Assembly (NCBI GenBank): GCA_017822615.1
Contig: GCA_017822615.1_4530.1
Length of the DNA stretch: 64,000 bases
Reading direction: 5' to 3' (one strand)
From: a phage
A program made the translations under genes and the position numbers. This document shows, piece after piece, positions 17,629 to 59,727 of the stretch (the first letter of the stretch is position 1; each line of letters opens with the position of its first letter). The notes under the pieces were generated by a model. The model was not told the DNA's origin and made no database searches. It was given only the letters and a program-made list of their open reading frames with translations.

Positions 17629-17964
17629 TTACCCCTTATTCTGTGTACGTTTAACTATGTCATCTAGCATCATTTGGATAGTCGCATTCTTGAGGTCCAT
17701 AATCTTTTCAATTTTTTGCTCAAGGGTGTTATTATTTGCCATTAATGTAGAGTTAATTTGATTTAGCATCTGGGTAAGTTCGGCTTTAGTTGCATAAGTT
17801 GATTCAACAAAGACCAACTTCTTCTCTAGCTCTCGACTTTTCTCCTCCATTTCCTCAAGATCAGAGCCGAATTTATCCATTTTTTGTTTGAAAAAGAACC
17901 AGATGACTCCGATTAAAGGGATTATTGCATCCTTTGCAAGTCCCCATGCTTCTTGAAATTCCAT
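17629..17964 (-). CDS. membrane-anchored coiled-coil protein
   Basis: 111 aa; N-terminal TM segment IIPLIGVIWFFF followed by a charged helical region. Confidence 0.5.
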   Translation of the reverse strand: MEFQEAWGLAKDAIIPLIGVIWFFFKQKMDKFGSDLEEMEEKSRELEKKLVFVESTYATKAELTQMLNQINSTLMANNNTLEQKIEKIMDLKNATIQMMLDDIVKRTQNKG

Positions 17965-20222: not shown

Positions 20223-21710
20223 TTACACTCCATACTCGTAAGAAATGTTATCAAGGTCAAAAGAAGGGACAACATTATAAGCAGGAACTATATTATTCTC
20301 TGTATATTTACTGTCATCCTCAGTATTAAGTTTAACATAAACACGAAGAGAAGTCAAGCGTCCAAAAGCAAGTGCTGCATAAATAACACCTTTGATTTGA
20401 TCGTTCGTTACTGAAGAACCTAATTCAAAGTAAGCTTGCAGGTTTTGTAAAGCTTCTACGATGTTTTGTTTTTCTGTTCCACTTAAAGTTGTTCCGTTGA
20501 CAGTTTGATAAACAAGTTTTACAGAATACATAGCAGAAGCACCAGGAGAGAAGCGAATAATTTCTTGTCCTCCATCTTCTGTTGTAACTGTTATGTTAGT
20601 TGTTCCGTGTGTCAAAGTGTTGATTGGTTTGGTTTTATAAATAACATTTGCAATTTCTTCTGCACTGCCACCATAAACTATAGTCTGGAAAGTCATAGCT
20701 GGAGCGTGTTCTTGATCATGTAACGTAGGGTTATCATAAATCTTCACCTTAGTAACACCATCTGTAAGCAACAGAGCTTTCACAATAGCTGCTCGTGTCC
20801 CTGCGTTAGCTTCATCAACGTTGTCATTGAAACGAGAGCGGAATTCTGCGTCTGTCTCAACATCTCGACCAGGAGAAAATGAATAGAAGTTACCACTGTC
20901 AAGATAACCTGTAAAGGTAGAAGATATCCCTGTAATAGACTCCACACCAACAGGATTGTATCCTTTCTCTGCTGCAACTACCGGAATCTCACTCCATTTG
21001 GTTCCAACCGGAACACTAGCATAAAATTTAATAGGAGTTACCAGCCCCACTGGAGTATCACTGGTTAAAGAAGTAAAACCAATTGATAAGTTACCTGAAT
21101 CAGAAAATACAAGACTACGATCAGCTTCTGTTAAATTTGCCTTGATAAAAGTTTCAAGATCGGTTATAAATGTAGAAGAACCAGGTGCAAGTGTTTTACT
21201 GTTTAGTCCTCCATCGACCGCACTTTGTGCATAAAAAGTAATATTTGGAACACCTGTAGCAGTTGCATTAGCACGAGAGATTTGATAAGCTGCAATCTTA
21301 GCATTCAACATAGTTGGTGTGCTAACATAGTAGTTCATATCACTATCAGAGTTGAAATAAATATCTGTGCCTAGCTCATAAGTCCAAGCTGCTTTGTTAT
21401 TACTCTTAACATATGCATAACCTGTACTTGCTGCTGCACCTGCTCGATAGAAACCGCGTTTAGAAAAGATTTCATCAAGATAAATACCTTCTGCACCATC
21501 CAGTGTTTGAGTATTATAAACACCTTGCATACCTTCCCACAATGTGTAATCTGTGTATGCAATTATTCTAAACAGTTGTCCGATCACAGTATCTTCCGAA
21601 GTGGCTGCATCTGCACCAAATGTGTTTTTTACTGCTGTCATGTAGTTGTTTAAAACATCGTCAAAAGTCGGGATTACAAATCCCGCATCTGTCAAACCAT
21701 ATTCGTCCAT
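20223..21710 (-). CDS. baseplate J-like protein
   Basis: 495 aa; size and position upstream of gpI-like and fiber genes. Confidence 0.45.
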   Translation of the reverse strand: MDEYGLTDAGFVIPTFDDVLNNYMTAVKNTFGADAATSEDTVIGQLFRIIAYTDYTLWEGMQGVYNTQTLDGAEGIYLDEIFSKRGFYRAGAAASTGYAYVKSNNKAAWTYELGTDIYFNSDSDMNYYVSTPTMLNAKIAAYQISRANATATGVPNITFYAQSAVDGGLNSKTLAPGSSTFITDLETFIKANLTEADRSLVFSDSGNLSIGFTSLTSDTPVGLVTPIKFYASVPVGTKWSEIPVVAAEKGYNPVGVESITGISSTFTGYLDSGNFYSFSPGRDVETDAEFRSRFNDNVDEANAGTRAAIVKALLLTDGVTKVKIYDNPTLHDQEHAPAMTFQTIVYGGSAEEIANVIYKTKPINTLTHGTTNITVTTEDGGQEIIRFSPGASAMYSVKLVYQTVNGTTLSGTEKQNIVEALQNLQAYFELGSSVTNDQIKGVIYAALAFGRLTSLRVYVKLNTEDDSKYTENNIVPAYNVVPSFDLDNISYEYGV

Positions 21711-21952
21711 TAGTCATCCTCTTTGGTAGATTGTGATCTGCCCCAGCGTAAATCAATAAGATTTTTCATGAGGCGAGAAGGAGTTATCATGAAAACAAAA
21801 GCCCAACCCATCCATTCAGGAATTTCTTTTTCTATTCCTAAAAAGATAAACATGCCTGTCATAACCGACATGCCTACAGCGTTCCAGACTTTCGTAGAAC
21901 TGACTTTATTATCAGGATATGTACAGAACATACCTATTAAAAATTTTCTCAT
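21710..21952 (-). CDS. small membrane protein (two TM segments)
   Basis: 80 aa; hydrophobic stretches VMTGMFIFLGI and WMGWAFVFMI; charged C-terminus. Confidence 0.5.
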   Translation of the reverse strand: MRKFLIGMFCTYPDNKVSSTKVWNAVGMSVMTGMFIFLGIEKEIPEWMGWAFVFMITPSRLMKNLIDLRWGRSQSTKEDD

Positions 21953-45377: not shown

Positions 45378-47453
45378 TTATCTTTTACGGACACTATACG
45401 GTTGGTGAAATCCGCTGTTCATTCTACTGTATCCTGTAGGAGCATTTGTTGTTGCAGGGATAGCTACTGCTTTGAAAGTATTCTCTTTTGACAGAGTATT
45501 GAAACAAGAAGCAGCAGCATCGGGAATGTCATCTTTAATAGTGGCTGTAGATCTTTCACCATTGAAAGATTCCAATTCTTTATAAAAGTGGGTTAAAGTT
45601 TCCACATTAGGGAAAGAATCTTCAACAATATAAACAAAACCGTTTTGACACGCACTACTAAAAGGCATAAAACGCTGAAGCTTTTTCTTGTTGCCTGGCA
45701 TAGCATCTGGTTTAACAACAAAACCCTCTAGAATAAGTTTCTTTGCAGACTCTGTATATTCTATTGTCCCAGCACCAGATGGGTCTTTAGGAAGAACTAC
45801 TGTAACTTCTGGTCCATCAATCTTACATTGATTTAGAATCAGGTTATCCCTTTCCCCAGGTAATCTTCGAAACCTTCCGAAAATTTTACTTTTCTCATCC
45901 ACAGCATCATAATCATAGTCACCAAAGATGTAGATATTACCATCTTGGTCTTTACCCATTTTGACAGATGTTGTATAGTCTGGATAACGATAAGTTTCTG
46001 TAGGAATTGAAACAGCTTTATCCCATGCTCGCATTAGTTTAAGATTATTAGGAACATCTTTATAAGATATCTTATGCAACCATTCACGTTGGAAGAAAGA
46101 CTCTTTCTGTATACGTGCAAACCAACAGCCGTCCAAGAGTTGTGCTCTTTTGATTGCTGTTTGTGATTTAAGCTGTGCTAAATAATTAGGGTTAAGCCTA
46201 ATCAATTCTGGGTTATCAAATATTGTCCCACCGATAAATACGAAAGTTTGTGGTTCAATAACAACTGTCTCCCCTGTATTAGGGTTTTCCATGAAACAGT
46301 TTTCTGGATATTTTTCTTTCAGTTCTTCAGGTGTGTCAGCAAAAACAGGTTCATCGTTAACAATGATGAAATATTTTTGTTTACCACACATATCTTCTCT
46401 AGGATAACCACCCTCATCAAGATAAGGTAACACCCAATTCAAAACCCAACTATCTGCATCGGGGTTACATGTGCACAACATGAAGCTTGTTTCTGATTCT
46501 GAACGCATACGTCCCAGAAGATAGAGCATTTCATATTGCGTGAAGTGGGTTAACTCGTCAAAACCTACCATTGAATACTGTGTACCCTGATGGTTTGTTT
46601 CTGCTGTTACGTTGTCATTTTCCAAATGGTCGAATTTGAGGGTTCCACCACCAGTGGCTTCAAAAATGATATCCATTGTACTTTCTTTTACGTGCGGTTG
46701 TAAAGGAAGATACAAACGTTTTGCTTCTGTAAACAGACCACCTGGTTTACGGTGAGCAGTGGTGTTCTTACGGAAAAGTATTCCACCAAACAAAGGGTCT
46801 TTGTAGGCGTATTTTAAAGCTTTCAGCAATAGCAGACGAGACTTGCCGCTATTCCCAGTAACGAAGCAGTGATCGCCACGTCTAAAGACAATATAGCTGC
46901 TTGGAGTCTCAAAACAATATTTCTTATCATCTGTTGAAATAACCTCGTGTATTTTTAAGTAAGTGCTCTTTTTACCAGGTATGTTAAAAGGAACACGTTT
47001 ACCGAATGGATTTTCTACATAACCTTGCAGGGGTTTTCCTATTTGCTGTAATGCAATAAGATCTCCTACAAGAATCTCGAAATGTTTCTTTGATTTCTTT
47101 TTCTTATAGAATACAAAACGGTGTTCCATACTAAGTTCTTGGAACAATCCTACACCATTTGTTATTCTGTATAGGTTATCTCCATTTAAATCATATTCTA
47201 CAAAATAAGGTGTTACCAATTCTAAACGCTTATTCTTAGGATTGTATTGGTAAATATCCTCTCCCGAATATTCACTAATCTGTCTCCAACCATCTTTTGT
47301 AAGATATTCTGTTTCAGCAGAAACACATCCAGCGGCACCACCATAAATCATAACTTCTGGCATTAAATCCATTGCAAGAGTCTGTTTACCTGGTTGAGCC
47401 TTTACTTCAATATCTACTCCAGCTAAACTACCTGCTGCCTTTTTCTTTGCCAC
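45378..47453 (-). CDS. terminase large subunit, interrupted by a mini-intein
   Basis: 691 aa; Walker A split as MIYGGAAG / SGKS around a 159-aa insert; nuclease-type C-terminal half. Confidence 0.8.
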   Translation of the reverse strand: MAKKKAAGSLAGVDIEVKAQPGKQTLAMDLMPEVMIYGGAAGCVSAETEYLTKDGWRQISEYSGEDIYQYNPKNKRLELVTPYFVEYDLNGDNLYRITNGVGLFQELSMEHRFVFYKKKKSKKHFEILVGDLIALQQIGKPLQGYVENPFGKRVPFNIPGKKSTYLKIHEVISTDDKKYCFETPSSYIVFRRGDHCFVTGNSGKSRLLLLKALKYAYKDPLFGGILFRKNTTAHRKPGGLFTEAKRLYLPLQPHVKESTMDIIFEATGGGTLKFDHLENDNVTAETNHQGTQYSMVGFDELTHFTQYEMLYLLGRMRSESETSFMLCTCNPDADSWVLNWVLPYLDEGGYPREDMCGKQKYFIIVNDEPVFADTPEELKEKYPENCFMENPNTGETVVIEPQTFVFIGGTIFDNPELIRLNPNYLAQLKSQTAIKRAQLLDGCWFARIQKESFFQREWLHKISYKDVPNNLKLMRAWDKAVSIPTETYRYPDYTTSVKMGKDQDGNIYIFGDYDYDAVDEKSKIFGRFRRLPGERDNLILNQCKIDGPEVTVVLPKDPSGAGTIEYTESAKKLILEGFVVKPDAMPGNKKKLQRFMPFSSACQNGFVYIVEDSFPNVETLTHFYKELESFNGERSTATIKDDIPDAAASCFNTLSKENTFKAVAIPATTNAPTGYSRMNSGFHQPYSVRKR
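46851..47327 (-). other. mini-intein (159 aa) inside the terminase P-loop
   Basis: Starts CVSAETEYLTKDGW (block A), has ELSMEHRF (block B-like), ends DHCFVTGN followed by Ser; excision would give YGGAAGSGKS. Confidence 0.7.
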
Positions 47454-47462
47454 ATTCCCTCC

Positions 47463-47807
47463 TTATTCAGCAATAATACCTTTTTCTTGCAGTGTTTTAA
47501 TATATGTTTGTAAACCTAGAACCTTTCGTCTATCTTGCTCCCAAAGAGCATTGTTTTGAGTTTGGTTGTTAACAACTTCAGATCTACTAACCCCTTTTGC
47601 AATTTGATTTTTAGTGTATGGCACAGGTGTCGATACTTTATCCATCAAGTCCGAATCTGGACCTTTAACCTTTTCTATGGCTACAGCCTTACACTCATCA
47701 ATAAGAACTGGGGAAACTTTTGTTGATGATGAACAACCCGTCATCATTAGGGGCAAAGCAAGACATACTGCCAGAATTAGTTTTTGCATAATTCGTTGTA
47801 TCCTCAT
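47463..47807 (-). CDS. outer-membrane lipoprotein, putative o-spanin
   Basis: 114 aa; signal peptide with lipobox-like LMMTGC; starts 110 nt inside the upstream TM/coiled-coil gene in another frame. Confidence 0.5.
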   Translation of the reverse strand: MRIQRIMQKLILAVCLALPLMMTGCSSSTKVSPVLIDECKAVAIEKVKGPDSDLMDKVSTPVPYTKNQIAKGVSRSEVVNNQTQNNALWEQDRRKVLGLQTYIKTLQEKGIIAE

Positions 47808-48090
47808 TGATCGTTTGTTTCTTCTTCTCTAAATCTGCTTTTAATTGTGCATTGTTTTTAGACAAGTTGTTTATTTGAGTATTTAATAATGCTCTTTCTT
47901 CATCTGCTCTTTTTTGAAGAACATCAAAATCTTGTTTTGCTTTTGCTTGGGCTGCTTGATATACTTGCGTTTGATAGGCAACACCATCTTTGTAGCCAGA
48001 CTCACGTATCTTGTTATAAGCAAACATTCCGGCAAGAATAAGAACAACAATTAAAACAAAACTTAATACAGTTTTAGTCTTTAGATTCAT
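47698..48090 (-). CDS. putative i-spanin (Rz-like)
   Basis: 130 aa; N-terminal TM helix (VLSFVLIVVLILAGMFAY) then coiled-coil domain; overlaps the lipoprotein gene. Confidence 0.5.
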   Translation of the reverse strand: MNLKTKTVLSFVLIVVLILAGMFAYNKIRESGYKDGVAYQTQVYQAAQAKAKQDFDVLQKRADEERALLNTQINNLSKNNAQLKADLEKKKQTINEDTTNYAKTNSGSMSCFAPNDDGLFIINKSFPSSY

Positions 48091-48140
48091 TATCTTCTAC
48101 TTCCTCATAAAATTTTATTTTAGGAAGAGAAGGGGCGTTG

Positions 48141-48311
48141 TTAACTATCTTCTTCACTTCCATTGGTTGAGCCTCCGCTAGGATCTCTTCCCAAGTCTTC
48201 TCTGTCATCATAAAGTTCTTCCTCCAAGTTCCAAACCCGTGTGTAATCATTCTTTTTATCTTTATGATAAGAAGAACGGTTAAAATCATTTTTAACTACA
48301 AAATTGCGCAT
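48141..48311 (-). CDS. small acidic protein (56 aa), not in ORF track
   Basis: Strong RBS GAGGAGG 7 nt before ATG at 48311; competes with the RBS-less 71-aa track ORF 48074..48289. Confidence 0.35.
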   Translation of the reverse strand: MRNFVVKNDFNRSSYHKDKKNDYTRVWNLEEELYDDREDLGRDPSGGSTNGSEEDS

Positions 48312-48450: not shown

Positions 48451-48747
48451 TTAGATTACGATCTTTTTAGGAACGTCATCTGTATTCTGCACGGCAGGGG
48501 TTTCTTCTTCCATAGCTTCATAATGTTCTTCTAACCATTCTTCTACTTGCTCTTTAATAGCTTTAGCTGCTTGGAAGCGGAGAGGTTTTGCTGCATCCTT
48601 ATCATTAACAAGTTCAACAATATACCGCATAGCTTCTAAATAATGCTCTGCAAATAATTCTTTTACACTTGCTTGCGCCGCATCCATTGCGTAAATCTGT
48701 TGCATTTCGGCTGTTGGTCTTCCACGACCACGTTTTAGTTTAGGCAT
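48451..48747 (-). CDS. DNA-binding protein, possible terminase small subunit
   Basis: 98 aa; N-terminal KRGRGRP basic motif; RBS AGGAGG; own promoter. Confidence 0.4.
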   Translation of the reverse strand: MPKLKRGRGRPTAEMQQIYAMDAAQASVKELFAEHYLEAMRYIVELVNDKDAAKPLRFQAAKAIKEQVEEWLEEHYEAMEEETPAVQNTDDVPKKIVI

Positions 48748-48952: not shown

Positions 48953-49031
48953 TGGAGGCGGGAATCGGATTCGAACCGATGATCTCCAGCATATGAAACT
49001 GGCGAGGACGACCAGACTCCTCTATCCCGCT
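48953..49031 (-). tRNA. tRNA-Met(CAT): tRNA, anticodon CAT (Met or lysidine-Ile), CCA encoded
   Basis: Manual cloverleaf: T-arm atcgg/attcgaa/ccgat, anticodon loop TTCATAT, 6/7 acceptor pairs. Confidence 0.6.
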
Positions 49032-49037
49032 ATTATG

Positions 49038-49107
49038 TATCCCGTGCTGGATTCGAACCAGCATCACAATAAGCTGTGGAACTCTTATCCTGTAAGTCTA
49101 ACGGGAA
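49038..49107 (-). tRNA. tRNA-like gene, anticodon unresolved
   Basis: Canonical T-arm gctgg/attcgaa/ccagc and 6/7 acceptor stem, but no regular anticodon arm could be folded. Confidence 0.35.
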
Positions 49108-49112
49108 ACTGG

Positions 49113-49183
49113 TTGTTTCGACAAGAATCGAACTTGTATCTCACGATTATCAGTCGTGGGTTCTACCATTGAACTACGAAACA
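49113..49183 (-). tRNA. tRNA-Ile(GAT): tRNA-Ile (GAT)
   Basis: Perfect 7-bp acceptor stem, D-stem GTTC/GAAC, anticodon loop CTGATAA, T-loop TTCGATT. Confidence 0.75.
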
Positions 49184-49192
49184 TTTAATTGG

Positions 49193-49266
49193 TCGGAATT
49201 GCAGGATTCGAACCTGCGACAATACGCTCCCAAAGCGTACACTCTACCAAACTGAGCTAAATTCCG
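49193..49266 (-). tRNA. tRNA-Pro(TGG): tRNA-Pro (TGG)
   Basis: Perfect acceptor stem, anticodon stem TACGC/GCGTA, loop TTTGGGA. Confidence 0.75.
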
Positions 49267-49363
49267 TCATAACATTCTAAAGGTACACCGCAAAAGAAAG
49301 TGTTCGGCGGCTCCTCGTTTTTTAACTTCACACTTGAGGTAGTGACTCACCTTTGTTGTATGG

Positions 49364-49436
49364 CTGGTCTGTCTGGATTTGAACCAAACCTACGACAGTC
49401 AAAGTGTCGTGTGCTACCTGACTACACTACAAACCA
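49364..49436 (-). tRNA. tRNA-Gln(TTG): tRNA-Gln (TTG)
   Basis: Anticodon stem CGACA/TGTCG, loop CTTTGAC, T-loop TTCAAAT. Confidence 0.7.
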
Positions 49437-49534
49437 ATAAATCATTTAATGAAGGGCAACCAGAAGAAGTGTGAGAGAAGGAGAAAACCATGAGTAAAAG
49501 AGAAAGTTTTCTGGCAACCCTTTATTAAATAATT

Positions 49535-49611
49535 TGGAGCGTTATATCGGATTCGAACCGATGCCACCGACTTGGAAGGACGGGATGCTGAACCGCTAAC
49601 ACTAATAACGC
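49535..49611 (-). tRNA. tRNA-Gly(TCC): tRNA-Gly (TCC), CCA encoded
   Basis: Perfect acceptor stem, anticodon loop CTTCCAA with one U-U mismatch in the stem. Confidence 0.65.
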
Positions 49612-49619
49612 TTTGTATA

Positions 49620-49654
49620 TATTTACTATACTACATTTTACTATTGGTTGTCAA
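49620..49654 (-). promoter_or_regulatory. tRNA promoter P1 (ctaTTGACAA, TG-extended -10)
   Basis: ttgtcaatag on plus strand at 49647-49656; TATAGT-like -10; reads into tRNA-Gly. Confidence 0.5.
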
Positions 49655-49930
49655 TAGTTTTATTGAGTGGGACAGTGACGAGTATCCCATTGGGTGACTA
49701 GCCCTACGTTCGGTAAGCTAACTTAAAATAATACAAAACAAAAGTCAAATATTATTCTTCGTTGCTGTCGATGGGAGAGCCGCTTCTTCTTTTGCCCCAT
49801 CCAACCCTACTCCGGTCAAGTTTCAGGTGACTCTTTTTGTGATCAACACAATACTAAGAACACTGTCTTTCGAGCAGACCTTGTGCACAGGATACGACGA
49901 TCAATCACAGTGCTCTTAATGTTGTGTTGG

Positions 49931-50002
49931 TGCTCCCACACTGAATCGAACAGAGATCCACGGATTACAAAACCGTTGTAATAGCCATTATACTATAGGA
50001 GC
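49931..50002 (-). tRNA. tRNA-Thr(TGT): tRNA-Thr (TGT)
   Basis: Acceptor stem with one G-U pair, anticodon loop TTTGTAA, T-loop TTCGATT. Confidence 0.6.
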
Positions 50003-50008
50003 AATGCT

Positions 50009-50086
50009 GGGACTCGGCAGGATTCGATACCTGCAATTCCAGAAGCCTATTGGCGACTGGGGGGTTTACCTTAACTCTACAAGTCC
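50009..50086 (-). tRNA. tRNA-like gene, non-canonical
   Basis: Acceptor stem (6 bp plus G-U) and T-stem GCAGG/CCTGC with an 8-nt T-loop; anticodon arm could not be placed. Confidence 0.3.
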
Positions 50087-50093
50087 ATAATTC

Positions 50094-50179
50094 TGGCGAT
50101 GAGTATAGGATTCGAACCTATATTGTTCTTTCGAACACGGATTAACAGTCCGCCGCTTAAACCATTCAGCCAACTCATC
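50094..50179 (-). tRNA. tRNA-Asn(GTT): type II (long variable arm) tRNA with Asn anticodon GTT, CCA encoded
   Basis: Perfect 7-bp acceptor, 3-bp D-stem, anticodon arm GCGGA-CTGTTAA-TCCGT, 15-nt variable arm GTTCGAAAGAACAAT, discriminator G73. Confidence 0.55.
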
Positions 50180-50185
50180 TTAATT

Positions 50186-50273
50186 TGGTGGTGAGTGATG
50201 GAGTCGAACCACCCGAATCGCAATGATAACAGATTTACAGTCTGCCCCGCTACCCCTACGGAATTAACTCACC
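50186..50273 (-). tRNA. tRNA-Tyr(GTA): tRNA-Tyr (GTA), type II, CCA encoded
   Basis: Perfect acceptor stem, anticodon arm GCAGA-CTGTAAA-TCTGT, long variable arm. Confidence 0.65.
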
Positions 50274-50403
50274 TAAATACTAATATTTAAATTCTTTTTA
50301 AAATAGCCAGTGTTCACACCACTAACTATGAGGTATCGGTAAAGTGGTTACCGCCACTTGCCGAAGATTTACTCTGCTAAAGTAAGCTACATTAAAAAGA
50401 ACT

Positions 50404-50489
50404 TGGCGGTAGATGTAGGACTCGAACCTACACGCCGTTTCCGACTACAGTTTAGCAAACTGTCGTGGCTACCATTTCACCAATCTACC
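50404..50489 (-). tRNA. tRNA-Ser(GCT): tRNA-Ser (GCT), type II, CCA encoded
   Basis: Perfect acceptor stem, anticodon arm ACAGT-TTGCTAA-ACTGT, 15-nt variable arm, G73. Confidence 0.7.
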
Positions 50490-50494
50490 TAATC

Positions 50495-50585
50495 TGGCGG
50501 AAGGAGGGAGAGTCGAACTCCCAAGGCTCTTTCAAGCTCGGCGGTTTTCAAGACCGTTTTCGTCGCCACATCGATTTGCCCTTCC
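50495..50585 (-). tRNA. tRNA-Ser(TGA): tRNA-Ser (TGA), type II, CCA encoded
   Basis: Anticodon loop CTTGAAA, long variable arm, T-loop TTCGACT, G73. Confidence 0.6.
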
Positions 50586-50593
50586 ATACTTAT

Positions 50594-50623
50594 AATCTAA
50601 CATAAAATAATGTTTGTTGTCAA
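50594..50623 (-). promoter_or_regulatory. tRNA promoter P2 (ctaTTGACAA, aTGtTAGATT)
   Basis: ttgtcaatag at 50616-50625; reads into tRNA-Ser(TGA). Confidence 0.5.
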
Positions 50624-50819
50624 TAGTTTTTTAAAACATTTTACCATGAATGGTGACTCCACCAACCCCCGTTCTCCACGAACGGTGCTCTTCGAGCATT
50701 TATGTCTTCTAATATAACCGTGGCCTTTGTTTATAATGTCTGACATACTTGCCTCATTCTCTGCCACCATGATCAGTAGTGGGTTCAAATCACTTGAGCT
50801 AATTCATGTTAAAATGTTC

Positions 50820-50894
50820 TGGTGTCTTTACAAGGAATCGAACCTTGACTAAGAGTTTAGAAGACTCCTGTGCTATCCATTACACCATAAAGAC
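50820..50894 (-). tRNA. tRNA-Arg(TCT): tRNA-Arg (TCT), CCA encoded
   Basis: Perfect acceptor stem, D-stem GTGT/GCAC, anticodon loop CTTCTAA. Confidence 0.7.
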
Positions 50895-50896
50895 TT

Positions 50897-50971
50897 TGGT
50901 GGCCCTGGCTGGTTTCGATCCAGCTACCTATCGGTTATGAGCCGACAGCTCTCCCATTGAGCTACAGGGCC
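50897..50971 (-). tRNA. tRNA-Met(CAT): tRNA-Met (CAT), possibly initiator-like, CCA encoded
   Basis: Perfect acceptor stem, anticodon loop CTCATAA with three G/C pairs closing the stem; unusual T-loop ATCGAAA. Confidence 0.65.
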
Positions 50972-57486: not shown

Positions 57487-57813
57487 ATGCAGATTTATAC
57501 AGATGATCGTAAATATGAGACAATTTTAGATGAAGATACTGGACGAATTACCGTTCTCCGTCACGGTGAAGAGTGGCGTGATGAAACGGGAGACAATTAT
57601 ATCTTGTCTCTGATTCATCTTATTGAACAAATGCGTGATGATTACGCTGAACTGCATTATGAAAATGAGGCTAATAAAGTAAAATTTGAAAATGAATTAG
57701 AAGAGAAAGAATCCGAAATGGTATATCTAAAAGAAGAGATCTCCCGTTTGGAGGAAGAGATTGATGCTCTTCAAGAAGAGATTTACGAACTCAACAACGA
57801 ACTGAACGCTTAA
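57487..57813 (+). CDS. hypothetical coiled-coil protein
   Basis: 108 aa; C-terminal heptad-rich segment. Confidence 0.5.
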   Translation: MQIYTDDRKYETILDEDTGRITVLRHGEEWRDETGDNYILSLIHLIEQMRDDYAELHYENEANKVKFENELEEKESEMVYLKEEISRLEEEIDALQEEIYELNNELNA

Positions 57814-59353: not shown

Positions 59354-59548
59354 ATGTTCTTAGCCATTTTAATCGTTTTCAGTGTACTTTCTTTTTATTG
59401 TATGAATGCTTCGGAAAACTTTCCTAAGAATTCAAAGAAAAGAACCGTATGTGTTGTGATTGATTCATGTATGTCTGGAGTTGGGTATGCGGTAGTTTCT
59501 TGTTTCTTAGCTTATCATTGTTCAAAATACCTGGAGGCATTTTTATGA
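59354..59548 (+). CDS. small membrane protein
   Basis: 64 aa; hydrophobic N-terminus FLAILIVFSVLSF. Confidence 0.45.
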   Translation: MFLAILIVFSVLSFYCMNASENFPKNSKKRTVCVVIDSCMSGVGYAVVSCFLAYHCSKYLEAFL

Positions 59549-59727
59549 TAATTTTAGCAACAATTCTTATGATGCTGATAGCAATTGCTATTGTAATTCT
59601 GGCATCTTTTCCAGCGGATAAATGGTATTTCAATATTCCACGTATGCTTGTTTTCGGTTTCGCAGGAATTTACATGGGTGAGACTGTAGTAAATATTAGC
59701 AACTTTCTAGAAAGCTATTTTAAATAA
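59546..59727 (+). CDS. small membrane protein (start refined)
   Basis: ATG at 59546 after GGAGG; hydrophobic segments IILATILMMLIAIAIVILA and MLVFGFAGIYM. Confidence 0.45.

Follow-up and report, generated by a model that had tools for sequence, protein, structure and literature searches.

Genomic context of the locus

Two overlapping genes occupy positions 47463..48090 on the minus strand of the window, that is, of the whole stretch of 64,000 nucleotides of phage DNA that we analyzed (contig GCA_017822615.1_4530.1 of the NCBI GenBank assembly GCA_017822615.1). The first codes for a protein of 130 amino acids (47698..48090, minus strand) that appears in the list of open reading frames (ORFs) and matches PHROG 4297 with an E value of 3.4e-35. 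The second, taken as its longest ORF in the same list, codes for a protein of 114 amino acids (47463..47807, minus strand) and matches PHROG 1267 with an E value of 8.7e-21. Both PHROGs carry the label "Rz-like spanin, lysis", and the two genes are referred to below as the i-spanin and the o-spanin gene, respectively. The o-spanin gene is in the +1 frame relative to the i-spanin gene and runs 235 nt past the i-spanin stop codon. The region read in two frames (47698..47807, minus strand) is 110 nt long when the longest ORF is considered and 92 nt long when the o-spanin gene is taken from its probable start codon (see below).

Downstream of the pair lies terL, the gene for the terminase large subunit (PHROG 979, E value of 2.6e-216, plus Pfam Terminase_6N). 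The junction is tight: within 47451..47465 (minus strand), the TAA stop codon of the o-spanin gene (47465..47463) shares bases with the AAGGAGG that serves as ribosome-binding site for terL, which starts with GTG at 47453. An earlier reading of this DNA, made from the sequence alone (hereafter the sequence-only reading), had placed the pair next to the terminase gene, and this overlap bears it out. On the other side, the spanin genes are bordered by small genes and a tRNA cluster. Ten tRNA genes are found at 48953..50971, and a 98-residue protein encoded upstream (48451..48747) is named small terminase in one record. A promoter scan around the spanin locus found 5 sites against a mean of 4.9 in shuffled sequence, which is not above expectation, and we therefore make no promoter claim for the locus. 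Terminator-like sites near the locus were enriched (6 versus 1.5).

The DNA of the window is ~99% identical to Phapecoctavirus genomes such as those of phAPEC8 and ukendt, and a blast of the whole window against ukendt was collinear with record positions ~80.7-146.7 kb. In a megablast search with the segment 45300..49000, 119 phage records matched, 63 of them with at least 80% query coverage in one place. The best matches (~99% identity) were phAPEC8-like myoviruses of ~150 kb that belong to the Stephanstirmvirinae, genus Phapecoctavirus, e.g., Escherichia phage ukendt (NC_052661).

A predicted membrane-anchored helical protein

The i-spanin has one hydrophobic segment in the entire protein, located at approximately residues 7-25 (TVLSFVLIVVLILAGMFAY; codons at 48016..48072, minus strand), with a Kyte-Doolittle mean of 2.57 over the 19-mer. 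Two Lys residues, read from the sequence, lie N-terminal to this segment, and the protein is predicted to be a type II (N-in/C-out) membrane protein with a single N-terminal transmembrane anchor. AlphaFold2, run on the single sequence, returned a continuous helix spanning residues 3-104, with block pLDDT values of 86-97 over residues 11-100, followed by a non-helical stretch of low confidence over the last ~26 residues. Residues 37-100 contain neither Pro nor Gly, with 32% charged residues, and a simple heptad score reached its maximum at residues ~60-100. The 130-residue protein with one N-terminal transmembrane helix and a periplasmic coiled coil that had been proposed at first sight thus coincides exactly with an ORF, has one predicted transmembrane segment, and includes a long predicted helix with a heptad peak.

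The C-terminal tail of the i-spanin is conserved and contains a Cys (YAKT..G.MSCF.PNDDGL.IIN.SFP); this residue, Cys111, is invariant in six homologues. By tblastn, the protein was found in 134 phage records, 32 of them at 99% identity or higher. The ORF of the window starts ~5-16 residues later than those of the diverged homologues compared. Besides PHROG 4297, the i-spanin weakly matches four other Rz-like PHROGs, matches that may be due to coiled-coil composition alone. A Pfam scan with E values up to 0.1 gave sub-threshold coiled-coil matches only.

A predicted outer membrane lipoprotein

The 114-residue ORF begins with a predicted signal peptide that ends in a lipobox, L-M-M-T-G-C (codons at 47733..47750, minus strand), identified with a PROSITE-type pattern. 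The segment CLALPLMMTG/C fits the PS51257-type lipobox rule of PROSITE, with the cysteine at position 25 of the 114-residue ORF, Ser at position +2, and Lys/Arg in the n-region. The Ser at +2 means that the protein is devoid of the Asp inner membrane retention signal. The Gly-Cys of the lipobox is invariant in six homologues, in which the motif appears as LMMTGC, LMITGC, LMVSGC, or TVVGC; the lipobox-like LMMTGC pointed out in the sequence-only reading is thereby upheld. Apart from the signal peptide, the o-spanin has no hydrophobic segment. The mature protein would have 90 residues, with 5 Pro and one further Cys (C39 in the numbering of the 114-residue ORF), which is also invariant. Its conserved C-terminal segment, NNALWEQDR..LQ.YIK.L, looks helical by eye. 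A Pfam scan of the o-spanin with E values up to 0.1 gave no matches.

The start codon of the o-spanin gene deserves a correction. The proteins of five diverged homologues all begin at the equivalent of Met7 (MQKL.., MRKH.., MKKV..), and the ATG at 47789 is preceded, ~12 nt upstream, by GAGGA, with the same spacing as at the i-spanin start. Because the homologue starts align to Met7 and the GAGGA is properly spaced at 47789, this ATG is probably the true start, which would give a product of 108 amino acids and an overlap of 92 nt with the i-spanin gene. The coordinates 47463..47807 previously given for a 114-residue lipoprotein gene are hence those of the ORF, but probably not those of the gene. 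The lipoprotein signal is valid from either start (47789 or 47807).

Conservation of the overlapping pair

We extracted the homologous pairs from phi92, phiWec190, and the Klebsiella phages FKP3, 05F01, and KP13-16, whose proteins are 33-54% (i-spanin) and 38-73% (o-spanin) identical to those of the window. In all five, the +1 offset is maintained, with an overlap of 80-95 nt, the i-spanin keeps the N-terminal hydrophobic helix, the o-spanin keeps the signal peptide ended by a lipobox, and the periplasmic part of each partner has one invariant Cys. The overlap in a different frame that had been noticed at the outset is not a peculiarity of this phage but an arrangement kept in these diverged phages. 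Both genes are present in ~134-136 phage genomes, almost all of them Stephanstirmvirinae (Phapecoctavirus and Justusliebigvirus/phi92). Other hosts are named in a few of the records, namely, Klebsiella, Serratia, Salmonella, Acinetobacter, and, in some labels, Campylobacter.

It could be argued that the i-spanin-like gene alone is real and that the 114-residue ORF is a spurious product of an alternative frame or has been miscalled. The annotation of public genomes lends some weight to this idea, given that in the RefSeq record of ukendt (NC_052661) the o-spanin appears as a 94-residue "hypothetical protein" that starts at MMTGC, inside the signal peptide, and that many other phage records also name its product hypothetical. 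However, 235 of the 345 nt of the ORF (two thirds) lie outside the i-spanin gene, and in this 235-nt non-overlapping part we found no other ORF of at least 60 amino acids on the coding strand. The o-spanin was retrieved by tblastn from 136 phage records, at identities down to 37%, and the alignment of the homologues retains 24 invariant columns, the lipobox Gly-Cys among them. In addition, a full signal peptide precedes the Cys in all homologues, a conserved signal that the truncated start would discard. Because two thirds of it lie outside the i-spanin gene and it is found in 136 phage records, the ORF is, on this sequence evidence, not a chance ORF, and a spurious or miscalled gene is scarcely credible. 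Records in which the o-spanin is hypothetical or starts at MMTGC, such as RefSeq NC_052661, could be corrected.

Assignment to a two-component spanin family

The pair was evaluated with the criteria that Summer et al. (2007) and Kongari et al. (2018) set for two-component spanins. At the sequence level, we found all the features that these comprise: a transmembrane segment and a helical domain in one partner, a lipobox in the other, the gene arrangement, Cys residues, and membership in a catalogued family. With regard to the latter, Tables 3 and 4 of Kongari et al. 2018 (PMC6139136, BMC Bioinformatics 19:326) group phi92 and phAPEC8 in a two-member family of "Overlapped" architecture, for the i-spanin and for the o-spanin, although both this catalogue and the PHROG label are based on the same in silico criteria (transmembrane domain, lipobox, and gene arrangement). 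The o-spanin of phAPEC8 is 100% identical to that of the window. Other records have annotated the genes as well: in the BASEL phage Bas61 EmilieFrey, "i-spanin" and "o-spanin" are the first two genes of the record, directly before terL; ESCO5 (KX664695.3) has an "Rz spanin" and an "o-spanin", the latter with the same extent as the 47463..47807 ORF; and FKP3 has two genes labeled "Rz-like spanin". Periplasmic cysteines have been reported in 507 of 528 two-component spanins (PMC6139136), and the single periplasmic Cys per partner found here is within the common range of that study.

Considering all of the above, we identify 47463..48090 as a two-component spanin of overlapped architecture from a Phapecoctavirus (phAPEC8-like E. 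coli myovirus), an assignment drawn from sequence to which we give a probability of roughly 0.9. The overlapped spanin-like pair recognized in the sequence-only reading thus stands, sustained by the PHROG matches, the conserved offset, lipobox, and Cys residues, the annotations of relatives, and the published listing. Since the pair is included in the catalogue of Kongari et al. 2018 and annotated in GenBank records, it is already known, and our result merely finds it again. Its value lies mostly in the correct annotation of what is predicted to be the device for the last step of lysis in a group of E. coli phages that has been sampled well. Phages similar to phAPEC8 are used in phage therapy and food safety studies.

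Comparison with known spanin systems

Nothing substantive differs between the pair of the window and those of the phi92 and phAPEC8 families, which have the same genes, the same overlapped +1 architecture, and the same position upstream of terL (phi92, Bas61, and ESCO5). Among the classical systems, the archetype of the overlapped architecture is LysB/LysC of phage P2. As in the window, the P2 o-spanin gene begins, in the +1 frame, within that of its i-spanin partner and extends beyond the end of the latter; the P2 i-spanin, a membrane protein of type II topology, has a periplasmic domain that is helical. On the other hand, lysB and lysC of P2 are located within a lysis cassette together with the holin and endolysin genes, unlike the pair described here. 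In the GenBank record of one relative, the i-spanin bears the name "LysB family lysis regulatory protein". The P2 LysB model of NCBIfam (TIGR03495) scored only 16.6 bits against the i-spanin (E value of 0.0073), far below its cutoff of 92.75 bits, which rules out homology to P2 LysB at the sequence level. Scanning the two proteins against NCBIfam yielded no match at the level of a family.

In lambda, the Rz1 gene lies entirely within Rz and both are part of the S-R-Rz/Rz1 cassette, whereas the genes of the window overlap and are apart from the endolysin. The Pfam models of Rz (Phage_lysis) and Rz1 matched neither of the two proteins with E values up to 0.1, and for this reason we do not regard the pair as a sequence homologue of lambda Rz/Rz1. 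Judging from its features, it is the same kind of system as Rz/Rz1 but a different family. The o-spanin, with a predicted 90-residue mature form that is not rich in proline (5 Pro) and a helical-looking C-terminal segment, resembles that of T4 and not Rz1: lambda Rz1 has no helical structure and carries a penta-proline stretch, and the T4 o-spanin is larger than Rz1, with a predicted C-terminal helix (PMC6139136). The spanin of T4, PseT.3/PseT.2, which has been shown to complement lambda Rz/Rz1 (PMC6139136), is also comparable in its genomic location, with genes far from those of the endolysin (e) and the holin (t). However, the T4 spanin genes are separated and not overlapped, and the T4 i-spanin has no periplasmic Cys while the T4 o-spanin has two (PMC6139136), compared to one in each partner of the window. 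No sequence similarity between the pair and PseT.3/PseT.2 was detected. A unimolecular spanin of the T1 gp11 type was also considered and rejected, since the lipoprotein has no C-terminal transmembrane segment and the anchor resides in the separate 130-residue protein.

A membrane-anchored coiled-coil protein and a lipoprotein could also have a role other than lysis, for example, in superinfection exclusion or receptor masking, as Llp of T5, or as an envelope-spanning complex for packaging or virion release. Several observations can be read in this way. The pair has no linkage to an endolysin or a recognized holin, its matches to experimentally characterized spanins are insignificant, and its neighbors are terL on one side and, on the other, a protein that one record names small terminase. 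The adjacency to terL is kept in phi92, phiWec190, 05F01, FKP3, Bas61, and ESCO5. In Klebsiella phage KP13-16, however, the spanin pair is followed by tRNA genes and not by terL, which implies that the linkage to packaging is not obligatory. Moreover, the transmembrane helix with its rod, the lipoprotein with outer membrane sorting, the +1 overlap, and the Cys in each partner are all conserved, and the genome of ukendt has no other annotated spanin candidate, when the lysis of a Gram-negative cell is expected to need one. A non-lysis role therefore appears highly improbable, and we favor the two-component spanin.

Endolysin and holin candidates

Two endolysin candidates are encoded in the genome of ukendt, both in regions beyond the limits of the window. 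One is gp161, a T4-type lysozyme (Pfam Phage_lysozyme, E value of 7e-11; record positions 68,648-69,148), situated ~11.6 kb beyond one edge of the window and ~27 kb from the spanins on the ukendt map. The other is gp212, a SleB-like hydrolase (Pfam Hydrolase_2, E value of 1.9e-17; record positions 149,391-149,912), ~2.7 kb beyond the other edge and ~52 kb from the spanins. A tblastn search of gp212, gp161, and their neighbors against the window gave a best E value of 0.39. The suggestion of the sequence-only reading that the lysis genes are dispersed, and that an endolysin should be sought elsewhere in the genome, is in agreement with these locations. That the spanins lie apart from the remaining lysis genes is not surprising, since it is the classical arrangement of T4 and this is a large virulent myovirus.

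The RefSeq record of ukendt includes no holin annotation. Two small ORFs immediately upstream of the spanins (48141..48311 and 48074..48289) lack hydrophobic segments, and their PHROG matches are all to families of unknown function. The paper on the related phage BME3 describes no membrane proteins beside the endolysins and proposes as holin candidates two small proteins encoded at a distance, 61 and 81 residues long, whose topology is that of class II holins. The window encodes two small proteins that each have a pair of hydrophobic segments, one of 80 residues (21710..21952, minus strand; phrog_1322, "membrane protein"; 372 phage records) and one of 60 residues (59545..59727, plus strand; phrog_19851), which agree in size with the BME3 candidates. 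It had been claimed that the window contains neither a holin nor an endolysin; the part on the endolysin holds, but the absence of a holin cannot be asserted with these two candidates in the window. The ORF at 57487..57813, annotated as "hol-like chemotaxis", was discarded as a holin because its product is a soluble acidic coiled coil. A search of the window for a homologue of gp113, which in phi92 is the "rIII lysis inhibition accessory protein", found none.

The dispersal of these genes might also reflect a holin-independent or pinholin-type pathway, in which the spanin would work together with an endolysin exported by its own signal peptide. The N terminus of gp212 begins with a hydrophobic signal-like segment (IKNFVTVALLSLTAFTFTPVVAKA/EA), its neighbors in ukendt have no transmembrane segments, and the same absence of membrane proteins beside the endolysins is reported for BME3. 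However, the genome also codes for the cytoplasmic T4-type lysozyme gp161, which has no signal sequence and would need a holin, and the 80- and 60-residue membrane proteins are available as holin candidates. We consider such a pathway rather unlikely.

Proposed mechanism

Beyond the ORFs, the sorting signals, the overlap and its conservation, and the family matches, all of which were shown above, we infer the topology, lipidation, complex formation, disulfide bonding, fusion mechanism, and expression timing of the pair as follows. The i-spanin would be anchored in the inner membrane by its N-terminal helix, from which a helical rod of ~80 residues would project into the periplasm. The signal peptide of the o-spanin would be cut by signal peptidase II at LMMTG/C and the resulting N-terminal Cys lipidated, after which the Lol system, given the Ser at +2, would sort the lipoprotein to the outer membrane. 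Taking lambda Rz/Rz1 and T4 PseT.3/PseT.2 as models (summarized in PMC6139136), we expect the C-terminal regions of both proteins to bind across the periplasm in a bridge that passes through the peptidoglycan, and the single conserved periplasmic Cys probably holds each partner as a disulfide homodimer. Once the endolysin has removed the peptidoglycan, the complexes would undergo a conformational change and collapse, fusing the inner membrane with the outer one and completing lysis.

Because the genes abut terL, the expression of the spanin pair is presumably late, like that of the packaging and head genes with which it would occur. It could be speculated that the conserved placement upstream of terL is functional and not historical, i.e., that spanin synthesis is coupled, translationally or transcriptionally, to DNA packaging and that lysis timing is non-canonical. 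This notion comes from the fact that in most of the Stephanstirmvirinae examined the stop codon of the pair falls within the ribosome-binding site of terL, and it also draws on the upstream 98-residue protein, the signal-bearing SleB-like endolysin, and the lack of a recognizable holin cassette. If true, the Stephanstirmvirinae would time lysis in a non-canonical way, but we regard such coupling as very unlikely.

An insertion in the terminase and other observations

The terL of the window carries an insertion of 159 amino acids (residues 43-201; 46851..47327, minus strand) that splits the Walker A motif into YGGAAG and SGKSRLL. The insertion starts with a Cys (CVSAETEYLT...), ends with ...HCFVTGN, and is followed by a Ser. 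With the insertion spliced out, the query gave an unbroken alignment with terminases from Pseudaeromonas phage KLEP7 and from Felixounaviruses. The KLEP7 terminase reads IYGGSAGSGKSRLLLLKAL uninterrupted over the junction and, in the flanking ATPase domain, shares 64% identity. Made by comparison with an insertion-free homologue only, the call is that the insertion has the signature of a putative mini-intein in the Walker A motif. The single-sequence AlphaFold2 model of the insertion had a pLDDT of 36, and a Pfam scan and a PDB sequence search with it gave nothing informative. A literature search combining intein, terminase large subunit, and phi92 retrieved no paper.

Another protein with a membrane segment and a coiled coil is found in the tail fiber module (17629..17964, 111 residues); it is predicted to have a transmembrane segment and is assigned to a PHROG labeled "lipoprotein", yet it contains no cysteine.

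Endolysin and holin candidates

Escherichia phage ukendt (RefSeq NC_052661), whose genome is about 99% identical to the window, codes for a SleB-like cell-wall hydrolase annotated as endolysin (gp212; 30392..30913 in L002, a stretch of that genome), which lies about 2.7 kb past the left edge of the window. The N-terminus of gp212 resembles a signal peptide (IKNFVTVALLSLTAFTFTPVVAKA|EA), and no transmembrane segments were found in the genes neighbouring it in ukendt, a hint that this endolysin may be secreted or held by a signal anchor.

Two small proteins encoded in the window have two hydrophobic segments each. The first, of 80 aa (21710..21952, minus strand; phrog_1322, "membrane protein"), is located in the baseplate module, has a charged C-terminus, and is contained in 372 phage records; the second, of 60 aa (59545..59727, plus strand), belongs to phrog_19851 ("unknown"). 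Both are similar in size to the 81- and 61-residue proteins proposed as "topology II holin" candidates in the paper on the related phage BME3, and they are candidate holins within the window. The 108-aa acidic coiled-coil protein at 57487..57813 (plus strand), a holin by the name of its PHROG (phrog_18076, "hol-like chemotaxis"), has no hydrophobic segment and was ruled out.

Another protein is encoded in the tail-fibre module, flanked by a tail-fibre assembly gene and a colanic-acid-degrading tailspike gene. This 111-aa product (17629..17964, minus strand) is hydrophobic near its N-terminus and includes a coiled-coil region, and it matches the Rz-like spanin phrog_739 weakly (E 1.2e-3). Despite its PHROG label of "lipoprotein" (phrog_15210, E 4e-70), it does not contain any cysteine.

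Annotation of the o-spanin and its upstream neighbours

In RefSeq, the o-spanin of ukendt appears as a 94-aa "hypothetical protein" (gp265; 22164..22448 in L001, another stretch of NC_052661), corresponding to 47463..47747 of the window. This version starts at MMTGC, so that the conserved signal peptide is lost. The o-spanin is called hypothetical in many further records too, and both the start site and the naming are probably errors passed on from record to record.

Upstream of the spanin pair, on the minus strand, is a gene for a 98-aa protein of unknown function (48451..48747; phrog_3330) that LR597654 names "terminase, small subunit"; the protein is basic at its N-terminus (KRGRGRP) and acidic at its C-terminus. 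If this label is correct, the spanin pair would be flanked by terS and terL. Ten clustered tRNA genes (Met, Ile, Pro, Gln, Gly, Thr, Asn, Ser, Arg, and Met; 48953..50971) are found immediately upstream of this block of small genes, spanins, and terminase, and on the same (minus) strand.

An insertion in the terminase large subunit

The terL gene itself (45378..47453, minus strand) contains an insertion of 159 aa (residues 43-201; 46851..47327, minus strand) that interrupts the Walker A motif of the protein (YGGAAG|SGKS). The inserted segment begins with Cys (CVSAETEYLT...) and ends in ...HCFVTGN, followed by Ser. Searches of Pfam and of PDB sequences and single-sequence AF2 gave no result for it. 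In Pseudaeromonas phage KLEP7, whose TerL is 64% identical in the flanking ATPase domain, the protein is devoid of the insertion and reads IYGGSAGSGKSRLL. The insertion looks like a mini-intein in which the homing-endonuclease domain is absent.

Among relatives with diverged homologues of the spanin pair, Klebsiella phage FKP3 has a terL annotated as two pieces with an HNH endonuclease gene between them (L010, 3339..6327), and in Klebsiella phage KP13-16 (L006) tRNA genes, not terL, come after the spanin pair. Therefore, both the linkage of the spanins to terL and the integrity of terL are variable within the Stephanstirmvirinae.
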